Notes: a model not told the origin generated them from the letters alone. A stretch of 64,000 nt of DNA from Amoebophrya sp. A120 (GCA_905178155.1 CAJINV010000001.1:3153675-3217674), one strand, 5' to 3'; positions 4,401-60,477 are shown, counted from the first letter of the stretch. Translations and numbers: made by a program.

Positions 4401-7400
4401 TGCGTTACTTTGTTCCCTGGACCTTGCTGCGCAGTGGTCATGGCCGTTGCGCTCGCGAAGCCGAAGCTGGAGGAGGAGGTTGTAGTGGCTGTGGCAGATT
4501 GATTCTTAGAGTTCTTGTCCTGCTTCTCATCGGCTGCATTTTGACCGGTTGTACTAGTGTCCTCGTCGTCGTTGATGAAGACAGCAACCATCGCCCGACT
4601 GATATCATCGATCACGCGCACTAGCGCTCCGGGTGACGTTTCTCTCAGCATCTCTGGCGTCGCCGCACTGGACTTGTTTCCCGCTGCTGATGATCCTTTG
4701 GATGAACCAGATATTGAGATTTCCACGCTTGCAGCGTTGTCGAACAAAGCCTGACTTTTGCCTTGTGCAAACTTGCGCAGAAAGTGGTTGAAATCTTCCA
4801 GCCCGACTTTCGTCGTAATCAGCTCCATCAACTGCCTCCCCGTGACCGCTCCACTCTCCGTTTGCCCGGCTGCTGCTGTACCGGGGCTGGATAAGTGGCA
4901 AACTATCAGCCCGAGGACGACGGCAGAGGCGGACCGGAATCGGTCAGGAAAAGTTTCCTTCCGCAGAATGCCGAGAATCGCATTTAGGTGGAGGCTGGAG
5001 TTGGTTATTTCGCGAATCAAGGGCATCAGTGAAGAGGGTTGTTGATTTCCTTGATGCTGTTCGGCCTGGCTGTAGGTCGTGCTACTCATCCTGGTGATCA
5101 AAAACAGAAACTTCAACACGTTGTGCAACACGAAGAGCGTTTGGGAGCTGTGAAGTTCCTCTTTCTCTTCGTGGGACAAAACCTGGGCGGAATTCTTCTC
5201 CTGTTGCTGGATCAGGGAAGAGAAGTCACGGGTTTTAATTCCGGAGGACGTGGCTGCTGCAGCAGCAGATACAGTCGTCGCATTCGCACTTTTGATAGTA
5301 CCCGGACCCTGAGACTGTGCCGAGCCCGCACTTCCCTTGCTCCCGGAAGCACCTTCGCTGGTCGACGCTATAAGCGGGAACCTTTTCTCCGGAAACTCCG
5401 CATCATTTGCGATGCACTTGGACCACCGCAGACTCGCGGTTACCTTGTCGATCAACTTTCCTCGGTTCGTTAATAACCCAAAAAACTTCTTCCTCACCTC
5501 TTGTAACTGCGTCTTCCCGACAATCGCGGTCAAATAGCTGAGCCACTCCACCGCAAAGTAGCAATTGTGCGTGCTTCGAAACCAGACATCCATGTCGCAG
5601 CGCTCCAAATCCGACAGAACGCGGATCACCTGTTTCCCGCAGGGCGTGACGACGACGCCGTCGACTGCCGTTCCGCTGGAATTTGTGAACGTGTCCGCCA
5701 GATACTCGGCTGGGAGGTCAAACCGGACCACCAGCTTCTCTAGCACGACGAACCGCAGTTCTTCGGGAAGTGTTTCGTCAAACACCATGTGAAACCACCA
5801 CTCGTAAGCGGGAACGTCCGAAGCGGTTTTGGTGATGCGAGCAGCTGTAGATGAGGACGAACTGCTTTTCGTCTTTGCTGTTTGGCAAAACTCTTTGTAG
5901 TACTTCCCCCCCAAGACATACGCAAACACGGTTTTCTCGTCGGCAGTTGGCGCAGCAAACCTGGTGGAAGAATTGATCCCCGCAACGGTGACGCTGTCGT
6001 TGCTCGAAGCCCTGCCTCGGTGAAAGGCACTGTTGTCTTCCTCACTCTGCATATTGACGTCGGAGGAGTAGGTGCTGCCCAGGCTGTCTTTGCGAGCAAC
6101 CGCTGTTCCACTACCTTCGAGAGTTCCGCCCACCCCGCCTTTCGGCATGCCGGCCACCAGTTTCGACAGGAGGTGCACAGACCGCAGCAAGAGGTCATCA
6201 CCGCTGCGGAACACGCCCGTTTTCTTGGACAGCATGGGGACGAAGCGCAAACAGAACCGTCTCGTGTCGTCGAAGCGACCGAAAGTGCAGGAAGTGTTGG
6301 TTTGCGAAGTTGCGTCGTGATCTGCGTAAAACAGTTCCACGATGTTCAAAATCGAGGAAAAAACCCGGGTGTCCGCTTCCTTCACGGTCAGCAACTGCTC
6401 GCACTTGTGGACTAGTCTATCCGCGGTTTCGTGTTGCTGCCGGAGGAATCGCCTGGAGACTTCTTTTCCTTCTCTGATCAGCAGCTCCATGGTCTGCAAA
6501 ATGATCAGCGACGGCTGCTCATTCCTCAATAACCACTGCTGCCCCTCGTGCGTCTCCTCAATCCCCCGGAGCAGAATATCCACGCCTTCCTCGAAAACCG
6601 CCCCCGAGCACATGTCCGGCGAGTTGGTGAGAAAAATCCGTAACAGCGAGATCGCCAAAACGCAACTGCGCTTCTGCCGGGAAATTTCGTCCAAGTCCCC
6701 CGATTCCCCCGACATATTGTCAAACCCTGCGAGCGCGAGCAAAACAGAAGCGGAAGCCCCAATTATCGGGGCAGGATTTATTCCAGCACCACCATCTGCA
6801 TTTTTGCCCGTCGCGGAAGTTGTAGATGATGTTGAAATCCCACCCACGTCGCACGCGCGCAACAACCTGGTCAGGTACTCGGGTTCCTTCCGGAAAAACT
6901 CTTTCCCAAATTTCTGCGCGCACTGAACGCTGTTCTCCGATAGGGTTAGTAATAACGGAATGTCCAGAAGCTTCAACAACGCCTCCCCACACGAGCTCGT
7001 GATGATTTCGAAGAAGTACCCCCGGTCCTCCTTTCTCGTGTCCATGATGGTGCGGACGACTTGATGCAGCACGGAAATCAAATCCTTTTCCAACCGCAGG
7101 CGCTGCGGCTCCTCGAACGATTCCGCTAAACTCGCCCATGGATTCTCCGCGACGAACTCTGGCGTGACGGGCTATGGAACTCCACAGCTCCGCGTTCCCC
7201 TCATTTGTGTTGCATGAACAGCAACACAAACGCTGGCAAAGATGCAGCTTTTGCATGACAACTTTCTAGAGGAGTGTAGTGCTGTTTTGGATTCCGGAAT
7301 CTGTCATGCAAACAGTGCTAACGGGCAAAAGGTGGATTTGGGATTTTGCATGACAAATGAGAGAGAGGGGAGTTGTGCACTTTCATACGGGCTCGCGCAA

Positions 7401-8072
7401 CCGGACCAGTTGATGCAGGATGACGCTGAGAAGTTTGACTCGCATCGGGTCGTTGGCGAGGACCTCCACTGCCTTCGGGTTATGGGGCTCTCAAACGTTA
7501 CATTCTCAACTGTTACATGATTTGTCATGCAAAAACGCTATCACTTTTCACAATTTCAAACCTTCTCCGCATGACAAGTTCTCGACACGCTAGATAGCAT
7601 TGTAATCTGCTCCAAACCTGTAATGCAAAAGGAGCAAGCTTTTCCCTTTCACTTTTGCCATTCTTGCATTACAAATTTCATGTAACAGTTGAGAATGTAA
7701 CAGTTGAGAGCTCCATACGGGTACGTCTCCACATACGCCCGCAGCTCGCCGACACCTGGTAGATATTTTTTGAAAAGGTAAAAAGTAGAGTCTCTTTATT
7801 CAGTTGTATCACGGTCATCCCCCTTGCTTTATCATCATGTTACGGTTCTTTATCTGAGAGCGAAATATGTGAGTTCAAAGTGCGGTAGGTCCAACTTCAA
7901 CGCGACGATTTTCTATACCGAATAACCATTTCTGGGGCAGCCGCAGGACGTGCAATATTCGGTCAATTTCCTCGGGAGAATCTTGCTCGATATCCAGCAG
8001 GACTGAGGCTTGGTCGGCAAATTTGTCGGCGACCTCGCCGAGCTTGTCAACTGCTTTGAAAAGAAAAGTCAT
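1403..8072 (-). CDS. Large protein (about 2000 aa): helical/ARM-like N-terminal region, coiled coil, low-complexity region, C-terminal WW domain; architecture loosely like a Uso1/p115 tether
   Basis: The 1896-aa ORF extends upstream via GT-AG intron 7756-7918 and two introners, giving MTFLFK...QKWLFG-VGELRAYVETYP-KAVEVL...LREP-VTPEF...RLEKDL in frame. WW motif LQPGWGKYATEDGDFYYFNTLTGESSWDPP. Confidence 0.8.
7173..7387. mobile_element. Introner (215 bp, degenerate TIRs, 5-bp DR CGGGC)
   Basis: TATGGAACTCCACAGCTCC.../...GGAGTTGTGCACTTTCATA; CGGGC at 7168-7172 and 7388-7392; removal restores host frame. Confidence 0.85.
7481..7717. mobile_element. Introner family B (237 bp, about 40-bp TIRs, DR CGGGT)
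   Basis: TATGGGGCTCTCAAACGTTACATTCTCAACTGTTACATGA with inverted copy at the right end; CGGGT at 7476-7480 and 7718-7722; same TIR as 30696-30930. Confidence 0.95.
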
Positions 8073-8738: not shown

Positions 8739-10175
8739 CTAGATATGGAGCCGTTTAAAAATCTTCGACTCCGGAATCGATTTGCTGGGCATCAAACTCT
8801 CACAACCTGCAACACCACCACGACTATCGTCTGCGACGGTTGTTTCGTCTGTACTGTGTGCCGCCTCGACGATTCGAATGGCCTCTGCAACGAGTCCCGG
8901 AATGATCTGCGCAAGCGCCTCCGTGTTCGTATGCAATGCCGGGTTGCGGTTGGCTTCCAGTAAAAAAACCTTTCCATCCTCGCCAAAAAGGAAATCGCAG
9001 CCGAAAAGTTGAAAACTTCCGAGGTGATTCGGGTTCACCTGTCCCTGGATGATTTCTGCAAGGCCCTCCATCGCGATTTGCAAGCCCTTTTGGTACTGTT
9101 CTTGTACTTGATGTTGACGTTCTTTGCTGGTGCAGAAAGGAATGGTGGTGTTCAAGAATTTTGTATCAAACACCTGGACCAGATCATTCATCTCCACACT
9201 ATACTGCTCCGCGCCGAGGTACTCCCTTTGCACCCTTTGGTTCGTGATGTGCCGCGCGGAGGTCTCCAGATCGGTCAGGTCGAACGGACAAGCACAGGAC
9301 TTGAGGTACGCTACAGGGACGACCGGTGCTGCACCTCCAGGGTTTTTCTTTCCTGCATCTTCTTCAAATGGACAGGCGTAGTAGGCCAGAAAGGGTTCCA
9401 CTCTAGCGACCAGCAGGAAAACACGCACGTCGAATTTGCGCTGTGAAGTCGTTAAGAGTGGTGTCTGCAGGTACTGCTGCACGATCCCCGTGGGCTTTAT
9501 TTTCAAGTTATGGCTCATCTTCGCCGACGAGAATTGGTCTTTCAAAAATGTCACAAGGTTGTCGAAGTTGGAAAAAACCTCAATTCCCTTGCCACGGTTG
9601 TTGGTCTGCGTCTTGTAGATCCAGTGGGAGGAAGATTTTTTATTTTCGTGCGCGCCCTCTTGACCGTGAATTTTAACGAGTTCTTTCTCCTTTTTCTTCA
9701 AGACATCCGATACCAAGAAGGTGGGGAGGTACCAGGGCGGAAAATCTTCCTTTGACAATTCCGTCTTCGTTTCTGTCGAATCGGTGCTGACGTTCCTTTT
9801 CTGCCACCACTGGCTCACGCTCTTCAGCATGCCCTCTTTGGTCCCAATAGAGACGCCATGAAGCTGGTTAGCGAAGCGAAGGTTTTTGTTGAGACCACCT
9901 CTTTGTCCCACCAGTACGCTGAAATCCACTGCGAACGCATTCTGCGCCCACTGAAAGACAGGTGATGAAGAAACGCCGTCCTCTTTCAAGGTACTGTCCT
10001 CCTCCGCCGTCTTTTCCTTTTCCTCGATAACGCCTCGTAGAAAGTTGCCTGTTTCCCGTCCCAAAACGACAATATCTTTGTATCCGCGGCTCCGAAGAAT
10101 TTGCTCGATCAAGCCCGGGTTGTTGTCTTTGGCAATGCGGCACAGGCCCTTTCTGTCTCCAGTCGACGACGGCAT
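8739..10175 (-). CDS. Tubulin-tyrosine ligase-like (TTL/TTLL) ATP-grasp protein
   Basis: Motifs WIYK...RGKGI, IVQQYLQTPLL, RKFDVRVFLLV, HITN, FQLFGCDFL...LLEANRNP. Confidence 0.9.
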   Translation of the reverse strand: MPSSTGDRKGLCRIAKDNNPGLIEQILRSRGYKDIVVLGRETGNFLRGVIEEKEKTAEEDSTLKEDGVSSSPVFQWAQNAFAVDFSVLVGQRGGLNKNLRFANQLHGVSIGTKEGMLKSVSQWWQKRNVSTDSTETKTELSKEDFPPWYLPTFLVSDVLKKKEKELVKIHGQEGAHENKKSSSHWIYKTQTNNRGKGIEVFSNFDNLVTFLKDQFSSAKMSHNLKIKPTGIVQQYLQTPLLTTSQRKFDVRVFLLVARVEPFLAYYACPFEEDAGKKNPGGAAPVVPVAYLKSCACPFDLTDLETSARHITNQRVQREYLGAEQYSVEMNDLVQVFDTKFLNTTIPFCTSKERQHQVQEQYQKGLQIAMEGLAEIIQGQVNPNHLGSFQLFGCDFLFGEDGKVFLLEANRNPALHTNTEALAQIIPGLVAEAIRIVEAAHSTDETTVADDSRGGVAGCESLMPSKSIPESKIFKRLHI

Positions 10176-10732
10176 GGTCGCGAGCGAACCTATCTTTTTC
10201 AGGTCGAGGTCCAGCGGTGGAAAAGAAAAAACTACAGGTAGTCAGGTACCAGGGTTGAAGCGGCAACAAAAGCAACACCTTTTTCTTCTTTTAGTTTTCC
10301 CGCTCTGTACTTTAGCCGTCGCTCCACGACAAGATTGTATTTCCGTTTTGGTTTTGAAAGTCTCTCGTACACTCTTTCCTCTCCCATCTGTCGCGCCTGT
10401 TTGTACTATTGTATTATCCCGAAAGGAAATTTGACGACGATAGAACAGCTTCTGCACCATTGATTCGTCCGTTCTTCACACAAAGTAACAAGAAATCTGC
10501 ACAGCAAAAGCTCCTGAGTGACAGAGGCAGAAAAAAGGCAATACAGGAACGTCAGATAATTAACACCTCCTGGCTCATTATATGCGCGTTGATCATTCTT
10601 TCTCATCTGTGCACATGTGCAAATTAATCTCCGAAAAAGGCGAAAATCGTCACAGTCACTACCCAATGAATATGAAGTTGCAGGATCGTTCACCATGATA
10701 CCGTTACCGACTCGTCAACATGATCTTGCTCA

Positions 10733-28556: not shown

Positions 28557-31500
28557 TCACTCCACCGTTTTTTTCTTTTTCTTTTTCCCGCCCGTCATTT
28601 TTGTGTACGTCGAAGGCTCACTCTGCTCATCCCCCGCCGCGGACCCCGGTCCACCCGAAAGCGACTGCTGCGACGGGGACCGCGGGCTGGCCGTCGAGTT
28701 GTTTTTCGGCGACATGCCCAGCGGCAAGTTCGCGTCGGACACTTTCAACCGCTTTTCGCCGCCGCCCATGTAGTCCAGCGTGCGGTCGTCGACGATGATG
28801 TAGATCTTGCCCTCCAGCTCCGCCAGCCGTTTCCTGATGGCGATGCAGATCTCCTTGCAAGTCACCAACAGCTGTTCGTTGCTGTGCATGCGGTTTTCGA
28901 ACCGGTTCGCCTCTGTGAACTGTTCGAACGCGATCTTGTCGACGGAATTGTGTACAAAGTTCTCCAGATTCACACTGGCTTTGTATTGCAGTAATAGATC
29001 CACCATCTTCTTGTCCACCTTCCGGCACGCGATCATCAGCGGCGTGTCGCCCATGTCCGGGTCCCGCCCGTCCACCTCCGCGCGGCGGTCGAGCAGGAGT
29101 TTGACCGCCTTCACATCTTGCGACTTCACCGCGTCGAGCAGACAGTTGATCGGCGGCACCATGCCGATGCTGTCCACAAACATCCTGGTGGAGATGCGGC
29201 ACCCGATCTTGCAGGCGAGTTGGAAGAGATGGATGTTGGTGCTGACCCGCGGCTCGGACTTCAGAAATTTCACAACCCGGTACCGCTTGTTCTTCACGGC
29301 GTACCAGATCGCGTCGTGACCTAATTCGTCCGTGTCGAGTGTGATGACCGGGTGAATTAAGCCCGGGGTTTTGTTCAACTCTTGCGACGTCCGGAACATG
29401 GAGGAGGTGGACGTGGTGTGCTTCGACTTGCTGTTACTAGAGGACTTACTGTTGCTGGAGTCGATGCTGCCGCTGGTTCGGTTCATCTTAGACGTGTTAA
29501 TGGTCGTCTGCGGACCTGTTGTACCGAGCGTCTGCGCGCCAGTTGGCGGTGCGGCCGTGGACCCGGTCTTCTGCCATGTTTTATTTTCTCCGCCAAAACC
29601 GCCGATAACGGGTAGTCCCGGCATTGGACTCGCGTTAGTACTTCCGCCACCCGCCGGGGACCGACCGCCGACCGGAGAGGACCCAACGGTGTTGGGCGAC
29701 CGCGCGCCGGGCCTCGCGGGCGTATTCCCCCCGCCGCTCGCCGAGCCGCTTTTCGGGCTGTTGGTGCTGGACCGGTGAAGTGCTGGGCTGTTTCCCCCGC
29801 CGGAGGAGGATCCCTCTTCGCGGCTCTTCGCGAACGCCTGGGCCCGGGCCGTGTTCGGCGCGGGGGTCTTGATCGCCTTGCCCGGGTACTCGCCCATGGC
29901 CTTCATGGAATAGAGCGGCGCCGCGCGTCGTTTCTTCTTCTTTTTCTTTTTCGTCACGTATCCCACAGAAAAAAGCTGGCAGGGCATATTTGTATTGCAA
30001 AAATAAACACAGAAAAATCTGTCATGGGCGACATCGTAGCATGCTATTTCGGGTATGCAATTATTTATTTTTGCATTACAAATACGACCTGCCAGTTTTT
30101 TTCTGTGTGATATCACTTTCACCACCGTGTCGACCACGACCTCCTCCACAAAATCGCCGAAAATCTCGTTCTCGTCGCCGAACATACCGAGTTTCAAGGT
30201 TTTATTCCAGTGATGGGGGCCCCCATCCACCTCTTTCTGGAACCCGGTCACGGAGTTGGTCTTTATGGTCGGGTTGTATGCCGTCGCGTCCACAATGTTC
30301 TGCGGCTCCCACGCTAGGTGGAGCATCTCCGCCCGGCCGCGCAGTTCCGGCTTCAGCTGCACGCCCTCGGTATCAACTGTAAAAATGTCTGGGTCTGGAA
30401 GAATCCAACTTGTCATGCTGATTTTGGATTCTAAAAAAATCTGTATTGCATGAGCAGCAAAGAGAGTCCAATTTGTGCTACACGGAAAGAGCATTTGTCA
30501 TGCGGTCTAGGCATCAGAAAGCCCTCACAAAATCTGTGATGCTAAGGCATGCATCACAGACATCAGGAGTCGTGCAAAATGTGCATGACAAACCCGGTAA
30601 TCTTCCAGACCCAGACATTTTTACATTTGATACTCGGGGAGTTGGGGTCGGGGGTCGGGCGTGTAGAGCACGAGGTCTGGGTTGTCCGGAACCGGTATGG
30701 TGCTCTCAAACGTTACATTCTCAACTGTTACATGATTTGTCATGCAAAATGGCCATAATTCTCCAGACGATCAAGCTGCTTTGCATCACAAATTCTCGGA
30801 AGGCTAAATAGTACTGTATTCCGGATCAAACCTGTAATGCAAGACGCGCAAGGTCCTCCCTCTCACCTATGCTAGTCTTGCATCACAAATTCATGTAACA
30901 GTTGAGAATGTAACGTTTGAGAACGCCATAACCGGCCCGTACATTCTCGGGGGTGGCGGTTCTGGCGGCCGCTCCTCCGGGGCATTTTTCCACTTCATCG
31001 AGGTTGCGGCTTTTAGTTCCAGCTGTTGTTTTTGGGATAATCATGTGCGATTCGCTAGGGGTAGCAGGAAATGAAAGCTGTACTAGATCACCACGAACCC
31101 TCCAGTGTCGCAGGCATCTTCTGCTTTGCACGAAGGAAAAAAAGAATGATTGAAAACCAAACGAAAAAAAAAACCAAATCAAGTTAGTACCCTCTGCTTC
31201 TGCCTGGCCTTCTCTTCGTCTTTGACCTTTGCGATCGTCTGCGAGTACCTGGGCGAGGAAAACCCCGCGGCTACCGCCTCCGCGGCGTCGACCGCCCGCA
31301 CGCCGTGTTTCTGCATCTCGGCGGCGCGCGTTTCCAAAACGGGCGTCTGGAAGTCGTACCGGAACCCCCCGGGTGCTTCCGGGTACATCCAGGGGAAGGA
31401 GTGGAAATCGTACACGATGTCCTTGTTTTGGTTCTCCAAAACCAGCGACTCATTCAGCCACCCGCCGTTGATTTCCGCCTGGCGCTGCAGCAACACGCAG

Positions 31501-36793: not shown

Positions 36794-38168
36794 TCACATC
36801 GCGATTTTTGCCGCTTTCGCCAGCGCCACGATCTCCTTGTCGCTGCGCCATTCTGCTGGAAGTTGCTCAAGTTTCGTGAGGTCCTCGATAGTACTGCCAT
36901 TTGCCGCTTTCTTGCGTAGCAGCCGTTTCATCATCTCCCTCGCGTCTTGCGGCGGGCTTTCTCTGTTTCTCCATCTCAGCGTTTCCACCGCTTTCGCCAC
37001 AAGGACGTCGCGAAGTGTTTTTGCCTCAACAAGTTCGCCGTCCTCAGTTCGAAGTGTGTCGAAAAACCAGTTGCGACGAAGGAACGGGTCCCTCATTAGG
37101 GCCACACCCTCCTCCACCACACGCGCCTGCAGAAGAGGCAGCCGAAACGTTGTAATCTTCCTGACAGTGGACGACGACGTGGACGAGTTCTTTCCATGTT
37201 GCCCAATCGCATTCTCGAGTGCCGTCCGGAACTTGAAGCAGGTAAGTCTGATTTTTTCCCTCCAATCGTATAGTGCGGGTGCGCTGCTGTAGTCTAAATC
37301 CGCCCCTCGACCACCAAATCGACCTGGTACGTTGAGTAACTGCATCCGATGCTCCACATCGAACAAAAACGCCGCTAGAAAGCGGAGTTCGGAATCCTTT
37401 TGTTCCTCTCGACCGTTATTTTTCCAAACTTCGTCTTCGACGTCTCTAGTCCGAACTTTTTTCCCAACATTTTCCGCAGTCTGCTCCCACTTCGCATGAT
37501 AGGCCCGCTCCAGCAGCGACGATGCCTTATTGTGGAACAGGCTCCTGTCAGAATTGGACGAATCCAGACCAGTGTCACAAGTCCTCTTGTGCGCAGCAAT
37601 CGTTTCCAACGCTTCCTGCGCTTTGTAGTCGGTGGAGTCCGCAACGTTGCCCGAGGATACCTTTATGATCTGCTCAAAGAAGCCCCTGGTGTTCGGGCTC
37701 GTGTACCATCTTTTCTTTGCTGGTTTTTTGGCTTTCGGCTTGGGTTCGGCTTTCGCTTTCCCTTTGATCGATGTCTTGATCGAAGTCTGCGTACCGCTAG
37801 TACTTCCCGTGAGGGTACTAGAACTGCTCGCACCCTTATTCAAGAAAAAAACACCATCACAATCACTTTTGCACATTTTTGCAATACAAAAAATTTTGTC
37901 ATGCGCAAAAATGCATCACAGTCAAGACTTATACGCGATTTCCCTTTGTGTTTTTGCAATACAAGAAAAATTTGTCATGCGAGACAAATTTCTGATGCAA
38001 AACCTCCCAAGTGTGATTGTGATGGTGTTTTTTTCTTGCATAACCCTCCGCAACAGGCACAGAACCGCCCTTCTTCGCGCGGACGCCACCACGTCCCTTC
38101 GCCTTCGGCACGGCAGCGGAAGTGGCGAAGAACGCCTGTGTCGTCGCTAACCCGATCCAGAGCAGCAT
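36794..38168 (-). CDS. Hypothetical signal-peptide protein, probable retrogene, interrupted by one introner
   Basis: MLLWIGLATTQAFFA...PVAEG joins ASSSSTLT... in frame after removing 37837-38042 plus one DR. Confidence 0.8.
37837..38042. mobile_element. Introner (206 bp, DR ACCCT)
   Basis: TATTCAAGAAAAAAACACCATCACAATCAC / GTGATTGTGATGGTGTTTTTTTCTTGCATA; ACCCT at 37832-37836 and 38043-38047. Confidence 0.95.
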
Positions 38169-39163: not shown

Positions 39164-42100
39164 TTAGACCAAACTTCCTCTTTTTGGCTGGCTGAGGTTT
39201 TCCACCTCCGACGTTCTGACGGCCCAGGAGGTTCTTGCGGTGTCCTCCTTCATCTCCTCTCCCGCATCCATGTCTAGATCCCCAGTAGTTGTACTATTTC
39301 GCATCTCCGCCTCGACGGCACGCCCCAGCCCCTGCGACCCGCTCATCCGCCGCGCGCTGGTCCTGTTCTCGTGGGAGGTGGTTCGCGACGCTTGGCCACC
39401 AGCAGTTTTGACGTAGTTCGCGACCATGGATTGCAATTTGGCGTTTACCCACGTCCGCAGCAGCACGTGCATTTCCAGCAGCTTGGTGGCCGTTTCCCGC
39501 CGGGTGCTGGATTTTCGCCGCAACTCTTCGTGCACGACCTTCACGCAGGGCAGCATCCGCTCCACCCGCGACATCCGCTCGCGGTCCTCGAAAAGGTCCA
39601 GTTCCGAGTCCCCGCCCTGCGAATTGTTGTAGTCGCTGTAGTCCGACATCAGGTCCGCGTCCTCGGAAACGGAATTCTGCGAGTTCCGCGTTGCCCAGCC
39701 AAACCGCTCGGTGTGGGTTACCTTGGTGTTTTCAATGGTTTTTGTTCGGTACTGGAGAATGGAGCAAGTCCATCGTGGTAATGAAGTATATTTAGGTTTC
39801 AACTTGCTGCGTCGCCATGTAGTTGTGTTTGATAGAAGTCGTGCAAATAAACACAGCCCCGGATGATGAATTCGAGTCTCCTCCTCGTGGTCGTACTATC
39901 GGACAGATAAAACCAGACCTCCGCACATGCTGAAGTAAAAAACTCATTACCAGGACACTACTTAATACCTCACACCCCGCCACTCGGTTTATCAGCTTCG
40001 CGAGCCAAACCACCAGTTTGGGACGAAAGGCCGCGACCCGTGCAGCCGCTTCAATGTGCGTCTCCAGGCCGTGCTCAACGTGCGCGAGGGTATCCTTCAA
40101 CCCGGGACAAGCCGCCAGAAGCTGTTGCCGCCTGGTTGTTTACGGAGTTAAAGAATGAGGAAAGCGTTAGTGAAAATGTGATGAACGAGATGCTGTGATA
40201 GAGTGGAAAAGGCATCATCATCGTGTGAACCACAATGCTGCGGTCTTTTACTTATCTATGCGCTTGTGCAAGACAAATACCTTCCCTCATCGTGGACAAG
40301 CTCGTGCAGGTCGATGTCCTTGTCATGCAACTCAACCATGCTGCTGATGTCGTCCAATTGCACTAAAACGCTCTGCTTGCCGCGCGTTGCGCGCGCGGAT
40401 CCGGGGGTAGAGGGCCTGAAAAGTTATTGTCTTATACCCGCCAAGAGGAAGCAATGCTTCCGAAGCATGCTACATGCTCCATAGGTATTTTTGCAAACAG
40501 ACACGTACAAAACTAATACACACGCAAATCATAGATTGATAGATTGTGATACAATTGCCCGAAGGCAGCATTCCCTCCGGAGACCGTGGTGCGGTGGCCT
40601 GTTTTCCGTCGCACGCTTGCGCGTCCTGACACCGGCTGCGAACTCCGGGCACCATCGTAGCTGGCCAACATGCTCCTGCATTAGCATTCAGAAGGGATAA
40701 CGATCATTCATGTGTTTGTCGCGCTCGCGGCTGTGGTCTTGTACAATCGTCGTAGTTCTTGATCGATCTCAACAAGAAGAACAAGCAAAAAAAGAAAAAC
40801 AAATCGATCGCTTTTCCCAAAAAACACTGCTTACTTGTGCCTGCCCTGTCTCGTTGTACCCACCTGACCAGCCGCCGCCGCCGAGGGCACTAGTGACAGC
40901 CGAACCCTTTGCGCCGAGTTCGGAGTCGCTTCCTCGCCCCCAGGTAAGACCAGCCTCGCACCAACGCCAGAAGTTTTATGAGAACTACCACCGCCCCCGG
41001 GACTTGCAGGTGCAATCGCACCGCCGGTAGTTGTAGTTGTCGTCTTTACTATGCTAATACCGCTTGTTTGCTCGTCCTTGCTTCCTATCGATTGCAAAAG
41101 TGTCTGGGTCTGGAAGAATACAAGATTTGCGATGCAGGTTTTCCAGATACCATGGCTGATGGCACTTAGGATGAAGGGGGCAGTCCTCAACCAATACACA
41201 TTGGAAGAGGGGACCCCAACCCCCTGGGGGTGAAGAATCGAGGGTGGCATTGACCTACAGAAAAATGATCAACGATCAAAAATCCGCAGGCGAGAACGGG
41301 AAGGATCTTTTCAGACACCGACCCAAATCCTCTGCCAACCACTTCCCTCGATTTCACAAACTTCACTGCCGCGACGCAAGCGAAGCTGACAGGAAGACCC
41401 CGGCCACCCTTCCTCACGACCGAATTCCGAGAGGGATAAATAGTCCCCTCAGATTAGACGGAAGCGAAGGCATAGTCCCGGGGGGCAAGAAGGAATGCTC
41501 CCCCACGCCCTGAAAGCCTGGAAGGCAGACAGGGTGCTCAACTGTGCATAGTGGTTAGCACGAAGAGCTAGGGACGTGAGAGACACCGCGACGCACAACA
41601 ACCCGACCAGGTAACCCAACACTCTCCGCCTCGAGAGCCCGGGGACCAGACAGTTGTGGCAGCAAAATGAGGAAATGCCAGACGACAAGTCGTCAGCAAC
41701 GCCAAGTCATCACCAGCCAACACAGCAAACAGGGACCAGGGGAGCCAGATAGCCAACTGACACACAGCTGGGGGGAAGGCTGAATGAGAGCGCACCGTCC
41801 AAACTGACGAGAGGCCCACAAACTCCAACCCGCACCTGAAACCCGAGAGAGCGGCCCAGACCCCTGAGAGCAGCGAAGACCTGAGCAGAGCCCAAGCAAC
41901 AACGAGGCGCCCCATCTACCCATCCTGACTCCTGCCGGTGGCGAAGACGCTCCAAAGTCAGAGCATCCATCAACGGGAATTTCCGACAGAGGTTAATCAA
42001 CGACAGCACGAGGTTGAGGGCGTGCGGGCTCTTGGAGGAAAAGCCAGCGGTATGAGGAAACCAACATCGTAACAGAGAGAGTCGCGACATGGGCCTGGAA

Positions 42101-45100
42101 GAGCACGCACTGAAACGACCCGAGAGGACAAGAAGATGCCTTCGGTCACCGCGACCAGCAGACCCGCAGCTCGTTCAAAGAAACATCGCTTCGGAGTGAC
42201 GAAGGCCGCACTTCACAGCCGATCCCCGCTGACGGCAAAACTCGAGCTGGAACTCGCTGGCGGAAGAAGAATCGCGTCGAACAAGCAGCGCGTCTCGCTC
42301 CACGCCACCAAGCTTGACCCGCATCAGACTCCCGGCCAAAGAGGGTGAGGAGCGTCCGAAAGCAGCCCGACCACCGCGACGTCGGAGGACGCGAGATCCG
42401 AAGACGCTGCACACCGCGCTAGCAGCACCACCTACTGCACGCCGGCGCCGCTACAAGTACAACATGCACCACGTTAAAAACAGGCTTGGTAGAGCATCCC
42501 ACTGCGGCTTCGGCGTCGGGACGTCAGAAGGCCACGCTGCGAAGGAACCGGCGCACGGGGGACACCGAACGCCGCAGATGGGGCGCCGCTATCACAGCTG
42601 ATGGAGTGGTCCGCGCACTGACACAGATGGGTCAGCCCCGGTGCCCCCGGCAAGAAAAACAGATCGATGAAGACATCCCGAGCACCATCTTCGTATTCAT
42701 CCCGTCAACACCACCACCACCTCCACCATTGAGCCTCAAGACCCGCCCGCACCGAGAACAGACTGCGCAGCACGCTAGACACCACGACTCGTGGCCAGAG
42801 ACGGACATCTTCGTTCCACCACTATGAAGGTCGCGCTCGGAGGGCAGGTCGCCGCTATTAAAGTCGCACGCACTTCGCAGGAACCGGCCAGCGGGGGACT
42901 CCGAACACCGCAAAAGGGGCGCCGCTATCAAAGCTGAAGGTTTGGTCCGCGCACTGACACCGAAGGGTCAGCCCCGGAGCCCCCGGCAAGAAAAGAGATG
43001 AAGACAGCCCAGAATCCCGCGCCGTATCATGTAAGAGCCACGCATTGCCGCTACCAGCGCAGCCGTTGCGACACACCTGAGGTCAGTAATATCGCATCAC
43101 GTTTGTTTCCATGAGGAAAAAGGCCAAAACCAATCTGCTACCACAACAGAACCCAAAGGAAAACCGAGAGACACAATAAAAGTATAAAGTTGGTGTTGGA
43201 GAGAGAGAAGGCGCTATGGACTTATTAGAGCGGGGTAACAAAGCTCCCATAAGAAGTTACCGGCTAACTTCTCATCCACCCGGCCGGGTGGATGAGAAGT
43301 TAGCCGCAGCGAGACCCAGCAGGTCTGGAATGCGAGACCCAGCATGACAAAGATTGAGGTCTCTATCATGCCTTTTCTGCATGAGAAACTCCCTCTCAAC
43401 TTGGTCAAAAGCGGACAGCTTTTGGCACTCACGCAACACAGATTTTTGCATCATTTAGGTTTAGCATGACAAGTTCTAATCTTCCAGACCCAGACATTTG
43501 TGCAGTTGATACTTCCTTCTTGATACGACGTCGTGTGGTCCCCGCTCTCGTCCTCAACATCGTCAGCCGAAAAGTTGTCCACCGCGTCCGCGGGCAGGTA
43601 TCAAATGTAAAAGTGTCTGGGTCTGGAAACTTGTGATGCTGGGTGGCGTCTCATGATGAGGCCAGAAATGCTGGCTCAGCATCACAAGTTTCTCAGCTTC
43701 TAGGTGTTGCCTATTCTGCATGACAAACTGCGTTTCTGCATCACAGAAAAATGTAGCTCTTGGGTAACTTGCATGACATTGGTGGTCTACGGGCAGGACG
43801 TCCCGGTGGCACGAAAGCCGATAGTACAAGTTACTATAAACATGTAAAAAAATATAATATAAAACGAGAAAAAACATGTTTATCAGAGTTATGAGTTGAA
43901 GGAGGATTACCTTGCTATGCACCTCGAGGGAGGACTTGTCTTGGGTAACTTGTCTTGGGTAACTTGCATGACAGATTTAAGAGTCATGCCAGACAAGCAT
44001 GACAAACATGCATTCTTCCAGACCCAGACATTTTTACATTTGATAGGAGGAGTGCACTCGCAACAATGGTCACCTTTTTCGCCGGTGTGTTGGGACTCGA
44101 GGCGCCGCTGTTTATCTTCGGGCTCGTCGCGGAAGTTAGTACGGAAGGATCCTTAATATCTGCTTGTTTGTTGCAGCTCGCGGCGGACGTTTGCCTGCTG
44201 GTGCTGCTGCTGGTGTGTTGGTCCACTCCGAGAACTCCGGTGGTCGTTGTATCTATTGTGAGGGACGAACAAACTGGTGCACCTGGAGCGGTGGTACTAC
44301 TAGCTCCCTGTGTAGCTGCTGCTGCTGCATTTGACGTAGCTAAAAACGTCGTCCCCACATTCGACACGGGTTCCACATCGCCGAGGGCCCGAACGGAACT
44401 TTTCGCGGTCTCGCTTGATGTCTCCGGATGCTGCATGCCTCTAGGATCATCTTTCTCATTCTTTGACAAGCTCGGTGCAGTACTTGCTGCTCCTGCATCT
44501 TCGGACATCATGTTGACAGCACACTTGCCGGGCGGCGGGTCAGTGACTGCTTTTTCAAAATCTTCTCGTCCGGCTTTTTCTATTATAACAGCAGCTCCGT
44601 GGTCTCCTTCTTTGCCCGTGATGTCGGCTCTCGTGTGGTCCTGTCCCTCCTGTGCTGTTGTGCCAGTAGTTGCGCCTCCTGCACCCGAAAGACTGCTCGA
44701 CACTGTGGGTCCCCCTGCTTTACCAAAAATATCACTTCCTTTCCCCACCGAAGTAGATCCAGCCACTGCAACTCCCTTGTTCAACATTCCGTCCTTCCCC
44801 ACACGAGACGGCTTTGAGGACCCCGTTGTAGCAGCTCCTGCCCCCCCGCTGTGGCGCTTGTGCCGCGGCGAGCTGCTGCTGCTTGCTGCTTCCGTCGGAG
44901 GACTTGGCTTCGCGCCGCTCGGCGAGACAGGTACAACTAGATCGCCACCACTGGGAGGCCCTCCAGGTGCAGTTCCTGCGGTAGTTGTGGCTGTTTGCTT
45001 CGCGCCACTTGTCGGCGTCTGCGGTTGCCCTACTACCCGAGACACCATATCCTTACTCGTTCCGACCGTTTGCAGCAGGGTCGTGGAGTCCGCAGCTGCA

Positions 45101-45411: not shown

Positions 45412-46254
45412 CTTGTGCTTTGATTCGCTGCAGTGGGTGTGACAGTTAATACGGCTGGACCACAATCACACGATGAACGAGAGGACCAAGGAAATCAGAT
45501 TTGTTGGCCTAGTATTTATTAGTAAGTTCATCTACAAGGTTATACTGTCGCTAGGTACAGCAACCATGTATGGGAAGGGGATGGCGATGGATTGTAGTGG
45601 ACTATGATTGTTCGCCCTCCTTCTTCTGTATGTCCTTCAGCGAGTATTGTTATTGTATAGAAAGGGCATGAGTCAAAAAAGCATCGACCTAATCACTCCC
45701 GTCGTGGTGCGCGATGCAAGTTCCGCTCCGCTCTGGAAAGAAGTTTCGGCTAGTTCAGGTTTATCGCCGCTCCGTGAGAACCCTCGCTTTCGCAAAGGAG
45801 GTACGTTTCTGTTCGGGAATTCGATATTGTAAAAATTATTCTTGTACAGGGTGTATCCGTAGATGTTCCTATGTGGTGCATTTCAGTATTCTAAAATAGC
45901 AAAGTTACATGAATTGCTCTTTCATTTTCTACGCCTAATTTTGACACTTTACAACTCCTCAAAATGTTCCTTGTTAGTTTTGCTAATGGTAAATTTCAAA
46001 TGGTAACTGTCGACTTAAGGTCGCGTCAACGTGTAAAGAATGGTAAATTACTGATATCATTGGTAGCGTTTTCATTTTTGCTTCCGAATCATAATCATGT
46101 ATTGTCTCGTATTGTACATAGCGGTGGTGCAAGTAGTTTCACCTTAATTTTACAGAGGACCACGCACTTTTTTCACTTTCGGTTTCGACGTCTTCTTTTC
46201 GGTCCATAAATTTCCGTTGGAAAAATCATGCTCCGTCCCGTAGAAGCAGCTCTT

Positions 46255-48242: not shown

Positions 48243-49917
48243 TCAGCGCCTGTTCGACAGCTCAGTCAGTTTGTTTTTCACGGTCGTGTAGATGGTCCCC
48301 GTAGACCGATCCGGCGCGGTGTAGAGGTAGGACAAACAATTTGTCTTTCCCTGTGTGATCACGTAAAACAGCACCAGATCCTTCAACATTTCGTATTCCG
48401 CGCCCGCGGCCAATTTTGGGCTGGTAAAAACGTCCCAACTGAAAAAGCAAAACCTGCACTTTCCCCCACACAGCGGGTGGCTCGGGACCGGCTTCCGGTC
48501 CACAAATCGCTCCCACAAGTGCGGGGCGGTGTGCGCCAAGAGGTAGCCAAACACGATTCCGTAGACCAGTTCCCGGAATAAAACCAGCAGGGGCGCAGGC
48601 GGCTTCTTCTTGTTCTTCGCCTGTTTATTCGGCGCCTCTTCAAACAGGTCTTCGAATGTGTCCGGGTTGTTCAGGTCCACTTTATTCGCAGGCACAACTC
48701 CTGACGCGTTTGCCGAGGATGTACTAGATGCGGTGGGGCCCCAGGAGAGCGGGTCGGGGAAGAGTTCGGACGCGGGCGTGGCGAAGAGGAGATTGTAGGT
48801 GATCCCGCGGACTAAAAGAAAATAGCAAAACGTGAGAAACCCGATGGTGTGAAAGGCCCCGTACACGGATCGTGGCGGGTGGTGCTTGAAGTACTCCCGG
48901 TTCCATTCCGCGGCATTGAACACCTTCGTATGGAAGCGCCAGGCTTGAAGTCGACAAAACTGAAATGATTTGTCATGTATAAGATGCAAGGCACGAAGTG
49001 CCTGTCTTGCCGGGATGGCAAGTGAGGCCCTCCATTGTGAGCCTGTTTAGGGTTTGAAATAGAGCTGCGAAAGTAGCAGGACAACAGCAGTCCACCTCTG
49101 TGCCCAAACAGCGCGACGAATTGGATTCCGGTGCTCGGAAAATTTGTCATGCGCCGCTTGACAAGTGGGCTTGCGACTGGTATCGCTTTTATACGTGACA
49201 AACCATTTCACCTTTGACGATTTCAATCCTGACACTCCCATACTTCGTCGCCGCCCGGTACACCTGCGGGTTCTGCGTGCGCAGATTATAGGCCTGCTCG
49301 CCTTTGTATCGCAAGAAAAAGCTGTTTCACTGCGAACTTGTGATGCAGAAAATGGAACGCAGAACTATTTGTCTTGCTACACCTGGAAGACATTGGATTT
49401 TCAAGCGTCTTTTCCCTTGGGAAGCACACATAACAAATTTTCAGTGTCATGTGTAACAAACTTGTGATGCAGATCTTGCAAAATCATCACAGTGAAACAG
49501 TTTCTTCTTGGGATACTTTGTAGTCAAACTTGCACTCGTGCTTCTCCGCAGCCCGGTGCTTGTCGCAAAATATCAAGTGCAAAAATGTCTGGGTCTGGAA
49601 GAATGCATGTTTGTCATGCTTGTCTGGCGTGACTCTTAAATCTGTCATGCACGTTACCCAAGAGCTCCATTTTTCTGTGATGCAGAGACGCAGTTTGTCA
49701 TGCAGAATAGGCAACACCTAGAAGCTCAGAAACTTGTCATGCTGAGCCAGCATTTGTGGCCTCATCATGAGACGCCACCCAGCATCACAAGTTTCCAGAC
49801 CCAGACATTTTTACATTTGATACAAAACACGCCGCCGCAACGGCACTTCTGGGCCTGCGCGAGCAGCGGAATCTTCTTCTGGCAAAACCAGCACACGTCG
49901 CTGGGAAGGGAGGACAT
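48243..49917 (-). CDS. AN1-type zinc finger fused to a membrane domain (possibly DUF962/Mpo1-like); 3 introners
   Basis: After removal: MSSLPSDVCWFCQKKIPLLAQAQKCRCGGVFC-DKHRAAEKHECKFDYKG-EQAYNLRTQNPQVYRAATK-VFNAAEWNREYFKHHP... Confidence 0.9.
48929..49242. mobile_element. Introner (314 bp, about 55-bp imperfect TIRs, DR CTTCG)
   Basis: TATGGAAGCGCCAGGCTTGAAGTCG.../...CGATTTCAATCCTGACACTCCCATA; CTTCG at 48924-48928 and 49243-49247. Confidence 0.9.
49307..49515. mobile_element. Introner (209 bp, DR CTTTG)
   Basis: TATCGCAAGAAAAAGCTGTTTCACTG / CAGTGAAACAGTTTCTTCTTGGGATA; CTTTG at 49302-49306 and 49516-49520. Confidence 0.9.
49571..49822. mobile_element. Introner family A (252 bp, DR CAAAA)
   Basis: Family-A TIRs; CAAAA at 49566-49570 and 49823-49827; splits a Cys codon of the AN1 finger. 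Confidence 0.95.
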
Positions 49918-50604
49918 GGCTTGATCTCCGCTAGAAGGGAAACTAGGAAATGTGTGATAAATCTCTTCTGGCCTTCTAGTTCTAGTTCGACAAAGGAAAC
50001 GTGTAGCAATAAACTCTATGACGAGTGAGGGTAGAGGAAAATGATGTCTTCGCTTGAAACACAACGCAGCGCTCATGGGGTCGGAGGACGTCTGATTTAG
50101 CATTTGAGACTCAACAACGCACGTAGAAAGGCCAAATCCAATAATATGCAAGAAATAAAATTTCTCGAATACGATGTTTTCCGAAGAATGAAGTTCCACT
50201 ACGTTTTTTTAGTAGTACGATGTTGAAAGGCATCATGTACTTACATTCTTTTATTGCACGAGATCACGACCACAACCATGGTACCACAATGGAACACGGC
50301 AGAAACGTATTGCTAACGATCCAACCGCCCAGTTGTTGTAAATGAGAATCTGGTCTTAGTTACTAGCCCCGCATAAAAACAAAACTCGGAGCGTTCGTGC
50401 CTGATTCCGAATTTCACCATTGACAACAACAAAATACTGTGCAGGTAGTCCACCGCTTTATTCCTTTGAGCAGAAACAAAAACAGCTAAATCAATTGAAG
50501 ATTGAAAATCGTTGCACCTCGTCGTTCATTCTTGTTTTCTTCACCAGTACTTTCGCATCACTGCCTTCATCTTTTTCGATCTTATTGTACTTCTGAACTC
50601 ATAC

Positions 50605-52569: not shown

Positions 52570-55307
52570 TCAGTACCCGAAGGTAGTGAAGGCTCCACCA
52601 TGGGCACCGGGCCCGGGCGAAAGTGATCTCGCGCTGCCCCCCTGCGATCTCCTGGGAACCATGGAAAACCTGTTATGTTTGTTTGAAAAAATTATGCTGT
52701 GAAAATAGGCAAAGGCAAAGAAGGTGGGAACTAATGTACTTCTTGTATTATTCCAGCAACACATCATCATGCTTTCATCTATCACTGTGTAAGAACAGAG
52801 TGCTTGACTATACCTTGGTGTGGACATGATGCTGGGATGCGCAAAGCCCACCGTCGTCGGATTCGTGTACTGTCCTGGCCCTGGACTCTGTGCTCTCTTC
52901 GGGGTGGGTCGCTGCGACGTCGCTGTTTTATATTTTATTCAGTCACCGCGGAAGGATCACCCTATGGATGATCGCTCGATGGGAGCATCTCCCACTGCGT
53001 CGCACGAGGAGGCGCCCTGGAAGCACCTACCCCACCGGCGGAGGCCGGTACGCCGAAGCAGCCCAAAGAACCCGGCGCGACGCCTGCGGCCAGACGATGA
53101 ATTTGGGAAACCGGTGCGCCCCATAGACGAAGGCGTAGCGATGACGACGGACCGACCAGTGGCATGTGCTCGAAGTGGAAAGCTTCGAGCGGACAAAAAC
53201 CGATAGCCTCGCGGCCTCGCGTTGCAATGGGATCGGAGGATCAAAGGACAATAAACCAAAGAAAGCCAAGGGCCTTGGCTTGGGAAAAAGTTCGCAAGGG
53301 TAACGGGTTCGAACCGCCAGTGCCAAACGACCCTCCATCCCAAAGCAAGGCGAGACCGCATGAATTCGTATTCTCGCTGATATCGCCAACGTCAACGAGA
53401 ATACAATCAGGGCTGCCAACACTGTCCGTACAACGGATAAACCCAGAGATGCCCAAATCTGTCCGCAAAGCGGATTGGTCTAAACTTTCCGCCGAGCGGA
53501 TGAGATCAAACTTTCCCCCAGGCGGATAACCACAACTTTCCGCACAGCGGATGAGACCAGACTTTCCGACATGCGGATGCGACCAAACTTTCCGCCAAGC
53601 GGGTAAACCAAACTTTCCGCAAAGCGGATGAGACCAGACTTTCCGACAAGCGGATAAAAGAGACTTTCCTGAGGCGGATGGACCAAACTTTCCGCAAAGC
53701 GGATGAGACCAGACTTTCCGACAAGCGGATAACCAAACTCTCCGCAAAGCGGATGAGACCAAAGTTTCCGACAAGCGGATGAGACCAAACTTTCCGCCAC
53801 GCGGATAGCCAAACTTTCCGCAAAGCGGATGAGACCAGACTTTCCGACAAGCGGATAGAAGACACTTTCCTGAGGCGGATGGACCAGACTTTCCGACAAG
53901 CGGAGAAAAAACACTTTCCTGAGGCGGATGGACCAGACTTTCCGACAAGCGGATGAAAAAACTTTCCTGAGGCGGATGGACCAGACTTTCCGACAAGCGG
54001 ATAAAAGACACTTTCCTGAGGCGGATGGACCAGACTTACTACCATCGGCAGGGGCGTTACTCCCTGAGGATAAGAGAGAAAGGAAATAAACTTCAACCCA
54101 GACCGGGAAGAGGTTCACCCTCTCAATCATCTTGTCCTGGCTACCGGAAAAGGGCGAGGCTCGGACATGTATAAAATATCGCCCGTCCAGCCTCAGCCTA
54201 GACTCACAGGCTCGCTAGCCTGCTACTGCCCGGGCATACATTTATTTAGGTGAGGTTTAATTCGGCTTTGCGGATTTACATACTGTGAGTGCAACGACAC
54301 ACTAAGAGCAGTCGAACTATGACTTCACGGGGTGGAAAAAACGAATTCAAAAGCAGTACGCATCTTCCATGCAGGCCCAATAAGGTCTCGTGATATGGTA
54401 TAAGCTCCCGGCCCCGGTGTTGTTGGTCCTGTTTTTTGGAAATAAAATAACGAACCAAATTCAAATCCGCAAAAACAATGAGAAAACACGCAGCTGAGTA
54501 CTGTGCTCGCGAGGGTCAAGAAGCGACACCGATACCGATTTCTATTTCAAAGCGGTTCTTCATACAATTACGATTGGCGTAGTAAACGTCTCCTCCTAGA
54601 AAATTATGAGTCACAAAAATCATATAATTTCGCAAGCAACTAAGAGTATACTCTTGAAATCCTTTGCCCGGCCGTACATGCTGGCTGATATGTCGCTGAG
54701 TGCTGGCTTGAAGGCGTAGGTTCCGGGTCCTGGGGTTTGCGCTCTCCTGGCACTTCCCATAGCGCTGCCGGCGTCGTCGCGACTCGATTTGGAAAACACT
54801 GTTCGGCCGGAGGCGGGCATGGTGCTTGATAGGAAAAAATTTGGCGTGTACGTTCCCACCGATGGCTTTTTGAACGGGGCCTGCGTAAAGGCATCCCGCT
54901 TCTCGTGAGAAAACACGGCGCTTGGAGGTCTGCTATGCCTGTAAAAGTTTATTTTTGATACTTCGAGGGTAGTCTTTTCTTGAGCTAAGCAGCACCGTCG
55001 TACGGGTTGAAGTGAAAAGTACGAGGGAACAAAACTGTGGAGGGAAGAAGGCGGGAGCGAAACGAAACTCCTAATCCAAAGCTCTATCTCTTTGATGTTG
55101 AAACTGAAAGTGAACAAATATGAAAATCCACTGACTGTAGTACCTTGCGTCGACATTGATATCTTGCACGTGATAGCCTCCTGGACCGGGTCCGAGCTTG
55201 TTCCTCCTTGCGGTGACTTTGTCCTCTTCTCTCCCGGTAAGCGTCCACTTTGGCGCCTTCCTGATGTTGCTCAGCGAGGTGCATAACGGCCCCGCTGGCA
55301 CCGACAT
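52570..55307 (-). CDS. SHIPPO/ODF3-like (PGPGxY repeat) axonemal protein, 4 exons
   Basis: GPGPGGY, PSVGTY, TPGPGTY, TPGPGAY and, beyond a proposed 1.7-kb intron (52642-54342), SPGPGAH...TTFGY-stop. The last exon link is inferred. Confidence 0.75.
53453..54037. repeat. Complex minisatellite of about 22-27-bp hairpin-forming units
   Basis: Units such as GACCAGACTTTCCGACAAGCGGAT, CCAAACTTTCCGCAAAGCGGAT and ACACTTTCCTGAGGCGGATG recur in mixed order, more than 20 units. Confidence 0.9.
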
Positions 55308-59800: not shown

Positions 59801-60477
59801 GTTCCTATACGCGGTAGCACCAGCCGACGCGGTGCTGCTACTTCCACTGGAAGAAGCTGTTGCGGCCATCGTTAGACATCAAGAAGAAAAATCCCTATCT
59901 CCGCTCGCCATATCAAAACGGAAGTCTGTGATGGAGATTTGTGGTCACAGATCAGCTTTGTCATGTTAGAAGGGAAAAGATGCGGACTGTAGTACTGGGT
60001 TGCGTGGGAAAGCCTTTGCTTCATCTTCAGCATGACAGGAAGCAGTGCAGCTGGAGGTGGGAGACAGCATGACAAATTGCCTGCAAACGAGGCCACAACT
60101 GCGGCTCTTGGCCCTCTAGCAATACCAGTCGATTTGCGTACTCAAATACAGCAAAAAAAATTTCGTTTCCGATATGGGGAAGGGTTTTTTTTTCTTTTGG
60201 ATATTAGGTTCCTATTCTTCTCCGCTTCTTCCGCGGCCGCGGCGGCTCGCTTCGCTTCCTGCTTCTCGGCCACGTAGTACTCCATGTCCTGCAGAGAAAT
60301 TTTGTCGACGGCTCGCCAGCAGGTCCCGCTGCGGACCAAGTACCGCTCCGGTGCGGGAATGACCGCGTTCGGGTCCGCCCATTCGACCAGGTAGTAGGAC
60401 CAGTCGTACAGGTGCGAATCCAGCCAGTGATAAAACGCAAACAAGGAACTCCAACTGGCGCCGAAGCCGAAGGTCAT
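56807..60477 (-). CDS. Multi-exon hypothetical protein with low-complexity centre and C-terminal hydrophobic segment
   Basis: MTFGFGASW...KNRNL-TMAATASS (across the introner), ...YRHPR-WKKIQPY (GT-AG), ...EFVLIW-VERGPWWNGF...DVE-stop (GT-AG) all join in phase. Confidence 0.75.
59877..60203. mobile_element. Decayed introner (327 bp, DR TTAGA/TTAGG)
   Basis: Degenerate TIR (CATCAAGAAGAAAAATCCCT..CCATATC vs the inverted right end TATCCAAAAGAAAAAAAAACCCT..CCATATC); internal GCATGACA motifs; removal restores frame. Confidence 0.75.

Follow-up and report, generated by a model that had tools for sequence, protein, structure and literature searches.

The stretch examined here, a window of 64,000 nucleotides (nt) from the Amoebophrya sp. 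A120 genome (GCA_905178155.1, CAJINV010000001.1:3153675-3217674), carries genes interrupted by twelve transposon-like elements, each bounded by terminal inverted repeats (TIRs) and flanked by 5-bp direct repeats (DRs). A preliminary description had listed them as introns that begin with TAT and end with ATA (CAT in one decayed copy) and never have GT-AG borders. A gapped TIR scan of the 64-kb window recovered 11 of the 12 at the starts given there, and the remaining one, 59877-60203, was picked up by a separate ungapped TIR scan with a loose threshold. On five block-shuffled windows the gapped scan returned no match with a DR of at least 4/5; the ungapped scan is unspecific (305–330 matches per shuffled window) and was superseded by it. 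Read in the sense of the host genes, the 5′ TAT is present in 12/12 elements and the 3′ ATA in 11/12. All twelve have a 5-bp DR, nine perfect and three with one mismatch (29959, 43599, and 59877), the same counts as obtained before, and a codon model trained on this same window places all twelve in minus-strand coding frames, in agreement with their earlier assignment to coding sequence. The elements, with their joints in transcript contigs, are:

7173..7387, minus strand, element of 215 nt, perfect DR 7168-7172 / 7388-7392, found by the gapped scan
7481..7717, minus strand, element of 237 nt, family B, 80% identical to 30696, perfect DR
29959..30112, minus strand, element of 154 nt, DR mismatch at sense position 1, joint 29953>30113 (159 nt) in 4/4 runs
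30371..30632, minus strand, element of 262 nt, family A, perfect DR, joint 30365>30633 (267 nt) in 4/4 runs
30696..30930, minus strand, element of 235 nt, family B, perfect DR, joint 30689>30930 (240 nt) in 4/4 runs
37837..38042, minus strand, element of 206 nt, perfect DR, joint 37831>38043 (211 nt) in 4/4 runs
41086..43511, minus strand, element of 2426 nt, family A, perfect DR (sense GGAAG), joint 41080>43512 (2431 nt) in 4/4 runs
43599..44045, minus strand, element of 447 nt, family A, DR mismatch at sense position 4, joint 43593>44046 (452 nt) in 3/4 runs
48929..49242, minus strand, element of 314 nt in the AN1 zinc-finger gene, perfect DR, joint 48923>49243 (319 nt) in 4/4 runs
49307..49515, minus strand, element of 209 nt directly past the AN1 zinc finger, perfect DR, joint 49301>49516 (214 nt) in 4/4 runs
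49571..49822, minus strand, element of 252 nt, family A, within the AN1 zinc finger, perfect DR, joint 49565>49823 (257 nt) in 4/4 runs
59877..60203, minus strand, decayed element of 327 nt, CAT..ATA on the plus strand and TAT...ATG in sense, DR mismatch at sense position 1

Transcript evidence was taken from the contigs of four runs (X1–X4, from one sample of one study) aligned to 29890-49889 at 99% identity; their library type is not on record and was guessed to be RNA. Nine elements are covered, with 7173, 7481, and 59877 lying outside. Each of the nine is skipped at exactly the length of the element plus 5 nt, eight in 4/4 runs and 43599 in 3/4, which bears out the earlier proposal of precise removal together with one DR copy. 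The same contigs skip six GT-AG introns and were therefore taken as spliced transcripts (15 of the 16 joints are listed here, for the nine elements and these introns):

31023..31190, minus strand, canonical GT-AG intron with a GTAC donor, located in the gene that also holds three elements
39722-39968, 40132-40280, and 40416-40552, minus strand, canonical GTAT..AG introns sharing a transcript with 41086 and 43599
46446-46670 and 46748-46904, minus strand, canonical GTAT..AG introns

Ordinary introns and elements are accordingly mixed within genes, as had been observed before.

Two elements bear on the position of the borders. None of the twelve offers the GT..AG borders of U2-type introns in a register that yields the identical product; for 43599 and 59877, sliding through the DR produces neither a GT start nor an AG end. 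To this extent the claim that the borders are never GT-AG stands. It had overlooked a frame-keeping GT..AG pair (G/TAT...ATA/G, adding one codon) just outside the ends of 7173 and 41086. At 41086 this in-frame pair is unused: the skip is 2431 nt rather than 2428 nt, so that the joint falls at the DR and not at the nearby GT..AG, and the interior of the element (41229-43229) has zero depth in 4/4 runs. At 43599 the joint has an ambiguity of 1 nt and the sense-upstream DR copy stays in the mRNA, so that the 5′ cut can lie directly at TAT or 1 nt ahead of it, with the 3′ cut correspondingly 5 or 4 nt past ATA; neither GT nor AG is present at register 0 or −1. Elements 43599 and 49571, which are 96% identical over 180 nt and lie in opposite orientation relative to their genes, are both skipped. 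Removal is thus independent of element orientation, and it is also independent of DR sequence. The raw RNA runs X7 and X8 match only bits of element sequence from other loci and not these genes; about 200 reads of X7 match 43427-43511 at 90–99% identity but have different flanks, and thus represent the RNA of a related element at another locus or in another strain.

Reading frames and proteins were also compared with precise removal. A retained element would break the frame in 11/12 cases. The exception is 29959, whose frame stays open with the element kept (ORF, i.e., open reading frame, 28557-30497, stop-free); the earlier statement that deletion restores the frame every time therefore provides no evidence for this one, although 29959 is removed in transcripts. 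For 59877 it is the frame that points to removal, and a homolog search for its host gene found none. Exon 49828-50208 is 100% identical to an Amoebophrya sp. A120 protein (P0001) with an AN1 zinc finger, and the P0001 sequence is what results when 49571, 49307, and 48929 are removed precisely. With 7481 precisely removed, the junction aligns to the ortholog P0003 identically and without a gap, whereas the P0003 alignment is gapped at 7173, where models with GT-AG and with precise removal are both compatible. The annotated protein P0002 (1770 aa; gene 1403-7717) begins inside a long exon downstream of both junctions; since P0003 extends the gene upstream across 7173 and 7481, the P0002 gene call is too short. 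Long ORFs of the window (1-64000) lie almost all on the minus strand, forming a unidirectional gene cluster. Pfam matches in it include WW (1403-7168), tubulin-tyrosine ligase (8742-10241), VTT (26833-27981), ankyrin (28560-30497), and WWE with PARP (32809-35223), and a tandem array at 53480-53810, made of ~25-nt units (CTTTCCGC..GCGGAT..), is open as minus-strand ORFs (53241-54035 and others).

The twelve elements fall into a family of four (A), a family of two (B), and six single types, and they are clustered, with none found at 7.7-29.9 kb (~22 kb) or 50-59.8 kb and three each in two small genes. Pairing of the TIRs, which the preliminary description had proposed, is predicted in 9/11 short elements folded; 10/11 fold better than their shuffles (z of −4 to −17), and 59877 folds weakly (z only −0.8). 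Whatever the TIR family, all twelve share an internal motif, TTGT.ATG / CAT.ACAA, with 33 matches in the 5.3 kb of elements vs 5 in the remaining 58.7 kb. It often lies ~30–45 nt from the element end (e.g., 7522-7529 and 30410-30417), and it would more likely be a transposase site than a splicing signal. An Rfam search of the window and a search of the TIRs against viral contigs each gave no match.

Related elements provide a larger sample. A TIR pattern search of metagenome contigs (metagenome_contigs) returned 149 loci spanning 497 kb, and all 80 of the 149 that are listed are JACKZZ01 contigs. Among the 25 longest matches, related loci share the elements and not the flanks with the window, and the JACKZZ01 source would be a relative of A120; relatives were present in this assembly for 11/12 window elements. 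Summed contig depth in X5, a DNA-like run, reaches ~2e5 over element bins vs ~45 in flanks, showing that the elements are repeated in the genome. Among family-A TIR pairs taken with no DR filter, 52/60 have a perfect 5-bp DR and none a 6-bp one. A scan that required TAT/ATA ends and the internal motif, again with no DR filter, found a perfect 5-bp DR in 220 of 284 elements and a 4/5 match in 34 more, which suggests one 5-bp rule. An end-homology search gave 330 related elements, of which 264 could be oriented by a codon model and 66 were dropped. In the oriented set, retention would break the frame in 257/264, an equivalent-register GT..AG occurs in 11/264, and neither GT nor AG is available in 92/264.

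The repeats of these 264 elements bear on what is recognized. DR composition is symmetric (86 elements have G at sense position 5, and 82 have C at position 1), indicating that G before TAT is a weak target preference and not a selected donor; a CNNNG target giving a selected G/TAT donor was rejected on these counts. In 30 of the 264, the DR both starts and ends with G. DR mismatches number 8, 9, 7, 9, and 5 at positions 1–5 and do not separate register 0 from −1, and an ortholog search for L028, whose DR mismatch is at position 5, yielded nothing beyond the gene itself, read into the element. Insertion phases are 77/127/60; in the −1 register, 127/264 elements lie between codons (phase 0), above a symmetric target-sequence model whose phase expectation was computed with A120 codon usage on another genome. 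Several predicted GTAT..AG introns contain the element motif with no TIR detected (L013, L019, L020, L030, L037, L067, L068, and L077); such introns may be old introners decaying into ordinary introns.

Native donors resemble the element ends. The RNA-confirmed native donors are GTAT in 5/6 and GTAC in 1/6, and in the related assembly ab-initio introns without the element motif begin with GTAT in 30/127 vs a background of 4.6% (p~1e-13). The ab-initio model had no +3/+4 term, and 86/213 predicted introns with the element motif were excluded; the gene finder is noisy (41 window calls, many intergenic) and was used solely for donor composition. The TAT end corresponds to positions +2..+4 of a native GTAT donor, so that with a cut one base before TAT the element, whichever way it is inserted, shows N-U-A-U, which is the native donor lacking its G. 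With a cut at −1 the elements would have a donor U+2 with the native +3/+4 preference; the register at 43599 is narrowed to 0 or −1. The first T of the sense 5′ TAT has 0 substitutions across the 264 oriented elements, vs 8 at the mirror A of the 3′ end (p=0.008, post hoc), and window element 59877, with TAT intact and 3′ ATG, is a further case in the same direction. At the third base of the sense 5′ TAT, C occurs in 4 and G in 2, a tolerance also seen at native +4. In deeper TIR positions, used as a control, substitutions are not biased toward the 5′ side (44 vs 34; T>C 7 vs wobble A>G 9). Both As of ATA vary among the 264 elements, which gives no support to the idea of a fixed branch A there.

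Published data for this organism can be set beside the donor match. In Farhat et al. 2021, Table S4 gives T at +2 and varied 3′ ends in 9/9 predominant non-canonical intron classes of A120, and likewise in 9/9 of A25, and describes a near-complete spliceosome, with U1 proteins, U2AF, SF3B, and PRP8 present and snRNP27 not detected (PMC7789003). In yeasts, loss of SNRNP27K goes with +4U donors (PMC10581693).

The long element and the mobiliser were considered separately. Element 41086 is a short family-A element carrying an unrelated insert of ~2.15 kb:

41148..43312 (bounds approximate), strand not assigned, non-coding-looking insert inside 41086

Its approximate bounds show a 4/5 repeat, CCAGA/CGAGA; it holds a 143-nt internal duplication (85% identical) and, near its right end, a perfect 46-nt palindrome (43261-43306). 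X5 depth over the insert is 78–124 vs ~45 in flanks, which suggests 2–3 related copies in this DNA-like run; no relative was found in the fetched related loci. A Pfam scan of 12 ORFs in the long element detected no transposase domain. No autonomous element with the same ends was seen in the 497 kb of related loci, where the five TIR pairs of at least 600 nt (longest 1255 nt) were not scanned for ORFs. The elements thus have the TIRs, the constant-length target-site duplication (TSD), and the lack of a transposase ORF that characterize miniature inverted-repeat transposable elements (MITEs), i.e., non-autonomous TIR transposons. They share TA..TA termini with IS3EU/GingerRoot, and several begin with TATGG, like the TAYGG..CCRTA or TNT..AYA termini with TIRs described for IS3EU/GingerRoot and IS481EU in PMC10045372 and PMC12730594. 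According to these sources, however, IS3EU/GingerRoot usually has 6-bp TSDs (PMC10045372), as the preliminary description had stated, and IS481EU, with TNT..AYA ends, has TSDs of ~4/15/25 bp (PMC10045372, PMC12730594), in contrast to 5 bp in the window. A perfect 6-bp repeat occurs in 0/60 family-A pairs and 0/279 short elements; hence the elements are not assigned to IS3EU/GingerRoot.

The element class and its anatomy are already published for the A120 genome. Farhat et al. 2021 describe A120 introners with TAT-initiated inverted repeats and 3–5-nt DRs, give a 5-bp DR example in the legend of Fig. S19, and leave the splicing mechanism open (PMC7789003). The window elements share with them the organism (A120 itself, as the protein identity of exon 49828-50208 supports), the TAT inverted repeats, a DR length within 3–5 nt, non-GT-AG removal (9/9), and repetition elsewhere; the published introners likewise have non-canonical borders, occur in genes with mixed introns, number thousands of copies, and contain no internal transposase (PMC7789003). 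There is no difference of kind, and the identification with published Amoebophrya introners is upheld; where that text (PMC7789003) speaks of variable DR lengths and "no clear splicing signature", the DR here is strictly 5 bp, and further additions are the register of the cut, the GT..AG left unused, the match to GTAT, and the internal motif common to all twelve. Among 41 of the 58 A120 rows of Gozashti et al. 2025 (PMC12130899), family 38 is given as "Ginger, 5-bp TSD, TA/TA termini" with Copia/Gypsy integrase-like homology, manual inspection gave a 5-bp TSD for family 19, and most families have automated TSDs of 2–6 bp or none. These are also TIR DNA-transposon introners, to whose family numbers the window elements were not matched. 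A full-text literature search, with most subscription papers, figures, and logos outside its scope, found no statement of mechanism or register, and the GTAT match may already be visible in published figures or logos. The unused GT..AG at 41086, the register at 43599, the GTAT donors, and the invariant 5′ T were not found in print.

Two other lineages offer comparisons. Fritillaria borealis has non-GT-AG introns that derive from MITEs, bear TIR and TSD (PMC11282704, PMC13326754), and are reportedly spliced by a modified U2 spliceosome, a precedent for relaxed splicing; unlike the window elements, whose 3′ end is without sequence consensus, they have recurrent ends (AG-AC, AG-AT) alongside a duplicated U2AF. 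The nonconventional introns of euglenids likewise have paired ends, TSD-like repeats, several unpaired 3′ bases, and GT-AG introns alongside (PMC11282704, PMC11170887), whereas their CAG/CTG stem starts near +4 and they are reportedly excised as circles.

Two explanations would make removal at the RNA level unnecessary. In one, reverse transcriptase (RT) switches templates across the hairpin between the DRs, producing falsitrons while the mRNA keeps the elements. A hairpin with short direct repeats is a known signature of this artefact (PMC8240250), and all RNA evidence here consists of cDNA-type contigs from a single sample of unrecorded library type. We regard it as most unlikely: loss of frame upon retention extends through the window and related elements alike (11/12 and 257/264) and includes the zinc-finger motif, RT switching cannot supply the proteins, the 2-kb interior of 41086 is at zero depth in 4/4 runs, and 43599 keeps the upstream DR copy with 1 nt shared, where slippage would be expected to keep the downstream copy. 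In the other, the elements are excised from DNA, by program or frequently, and transcripts come from empty sites. The elements do resemble the internal eliminated sequences (IESs) of ciliates, which are TA-bounded, transposon-derived, and precisely removed with one repeat. X5 contigs, however, pass unbroken from exon into elements at the depth of the flanks (~42–45), namely 35762-37864, 38550-41115, and 44023-49013, the last of which extends 85 nt into 48929. No empty-site joint occurs among the X5 joints listed, 481 others being outside that list, with the reservation that contigs drop rare variants and that X5 may be the assembly's own source. Excision from DNA is likewise most unlikely.

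Of the routes that act on RNA, a self-excising hairpin, or a domesticated transposase cutting RNA with a 5-nt stagger, would account for a 0/+5 cut geometry that mirrors the 5-bp duplication and for a removal that depends on element ends and not on host sequence. Such activity is very unlikely given that internal sequences differ between families with only the short motif in common, that the window has no Rfam match, that the 2.15-kb insert leaves removal undisturbed, and that the 12 ORFs of the long element yielded no transposase. A separate, spliceosome-independent system, the explanation favored in the preliminary description, would employ a structure-recognizing endonuclease and a ligase, like those proposed for the nonconventional introns of euglenids, with cuts at the TIR stem's 5′ base and 5 nt beyond its 3′ base; we consider it possible but doubtful. 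It fits the indifference of removal to orientation, DR sequence, and an available GT..AG; it fits the stability of the predicted folds (10/11 far better than shuffles), and register 0 is compatible with the 43599 joint. A dedicated protein might bind the TTGT.ATG / CAT.ACAA motif of all twelve; euglenid introns of the nonconventional kind reportedly come out as circles (PMC11282704), and U1 snRNA (small nuclear RNA) was not detected in A25 or A120 (PMC7789003). Yet it predicts neither an element end equal to the native GTAT donor nor an invariant sense-5′ T above symmetric deeper stem positions, the same source reports the near-complete spliceosome, no candidate enzyme was identified, and the decayed 59877 folds weakly while its frame demands removal.

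The correspondence of TAT to donor positions +2..+4 and the invariance of the sense-5′ T point instead to a single relaxed spliceosome, and displace the second excision system as the likeliest explanation. The surplus of phase-0 insertions in the −1 register also counts in favor of the spliceosomal reading. We hold, with confidence slightly on the positive side, that the introners are removed by a loosened form of the ordinary U2-type spliceosome on hairpin-aligned ends, with the acceptor set by distance. An integrase-like DDE transposase encoded elsewhere would have inserted the elements with a 5-bp staggered cut. In the pre-mRNA the TIRs would pair and draw the exon ends together, and the 5′ cut would fall one base before TAT, the element supplying U+2 A+3 U+4 of a GUAU donor in either orientation with G+1 dispensable. 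The 3′ cut would be measured ~4 nt beyond the stem and not read from AG, and loss of the downstream DR copy would rebuild the original coding sequence.

Several observations weigh against a relaxed spliceosome. There is no selection for G before TAT (86 vs 82 of 264), and together with the 92/264 elements having neither GT nor AG this would require G+1 and AG both to be dispensable. A normal spliceosome would be expected to use the in-frame GUAU...AG that is ignored at 41086, a branch-point consensus is not evident around the 3′ ends, where both As of ATA vary, and the donor would sit buried in a long predicted stem. The 0-vs-8 asymmetry is post hoc at one of three positions tested, with 5/8 substitutions being A>G that keep a U.G pair, and unpaired ends have no 5′ excess (8 vs 12, 27 uncalled). 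The register comes from one locus (43599) in one sample with 0 and −1 not separable, and position 5 has no clear deficit of DR mismatches (8, 9, 7, 9, 5). TA..TA ends are also typical of IS3EU/GingerRoot (PMC10045372), so the match to GTAT may be fortuitous. The classes of Table S4 vary with the aligner's placement of ambiguous junctions, and the phase bias, its expectation borrowed from the codon usage of A120 for another genome, is without explanation.

Whichever machine is at work, we think it rather probable that these elements are spliced without G+1, AG, or an obvious branch sequence. The machine would read only a U at the base of the terminal hairpin and measure the other cut 4–5 nt past the stem, so that every transposon with TAT ends and a 5-bp duplication, to a length of at least 2.4 kb, would become a scarless intron in either orientation; it would be either a spliceosome using the hairpin as a ruler or a nuclease and ligase binding the shared TTGTCATG motif. 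This removal route would concern ~65% of A120 introns, for which the literature leaves the mechanism unsettled. It replaces a picture of variable splice sites with one geometric rule, which predicts a cut one base ahead of TAT, loss of the downstream repeat, and disregard of GT..AG where it is available, and it implies that gene finders built on GT-AG misplace these junctions in annotation. If the spliceosomal reading is true, a spliceosome can neutralize a transposon family without a scar, and the spread of TAT-ended elements would be explained by their carrying the host GUAU donor core at both ends.

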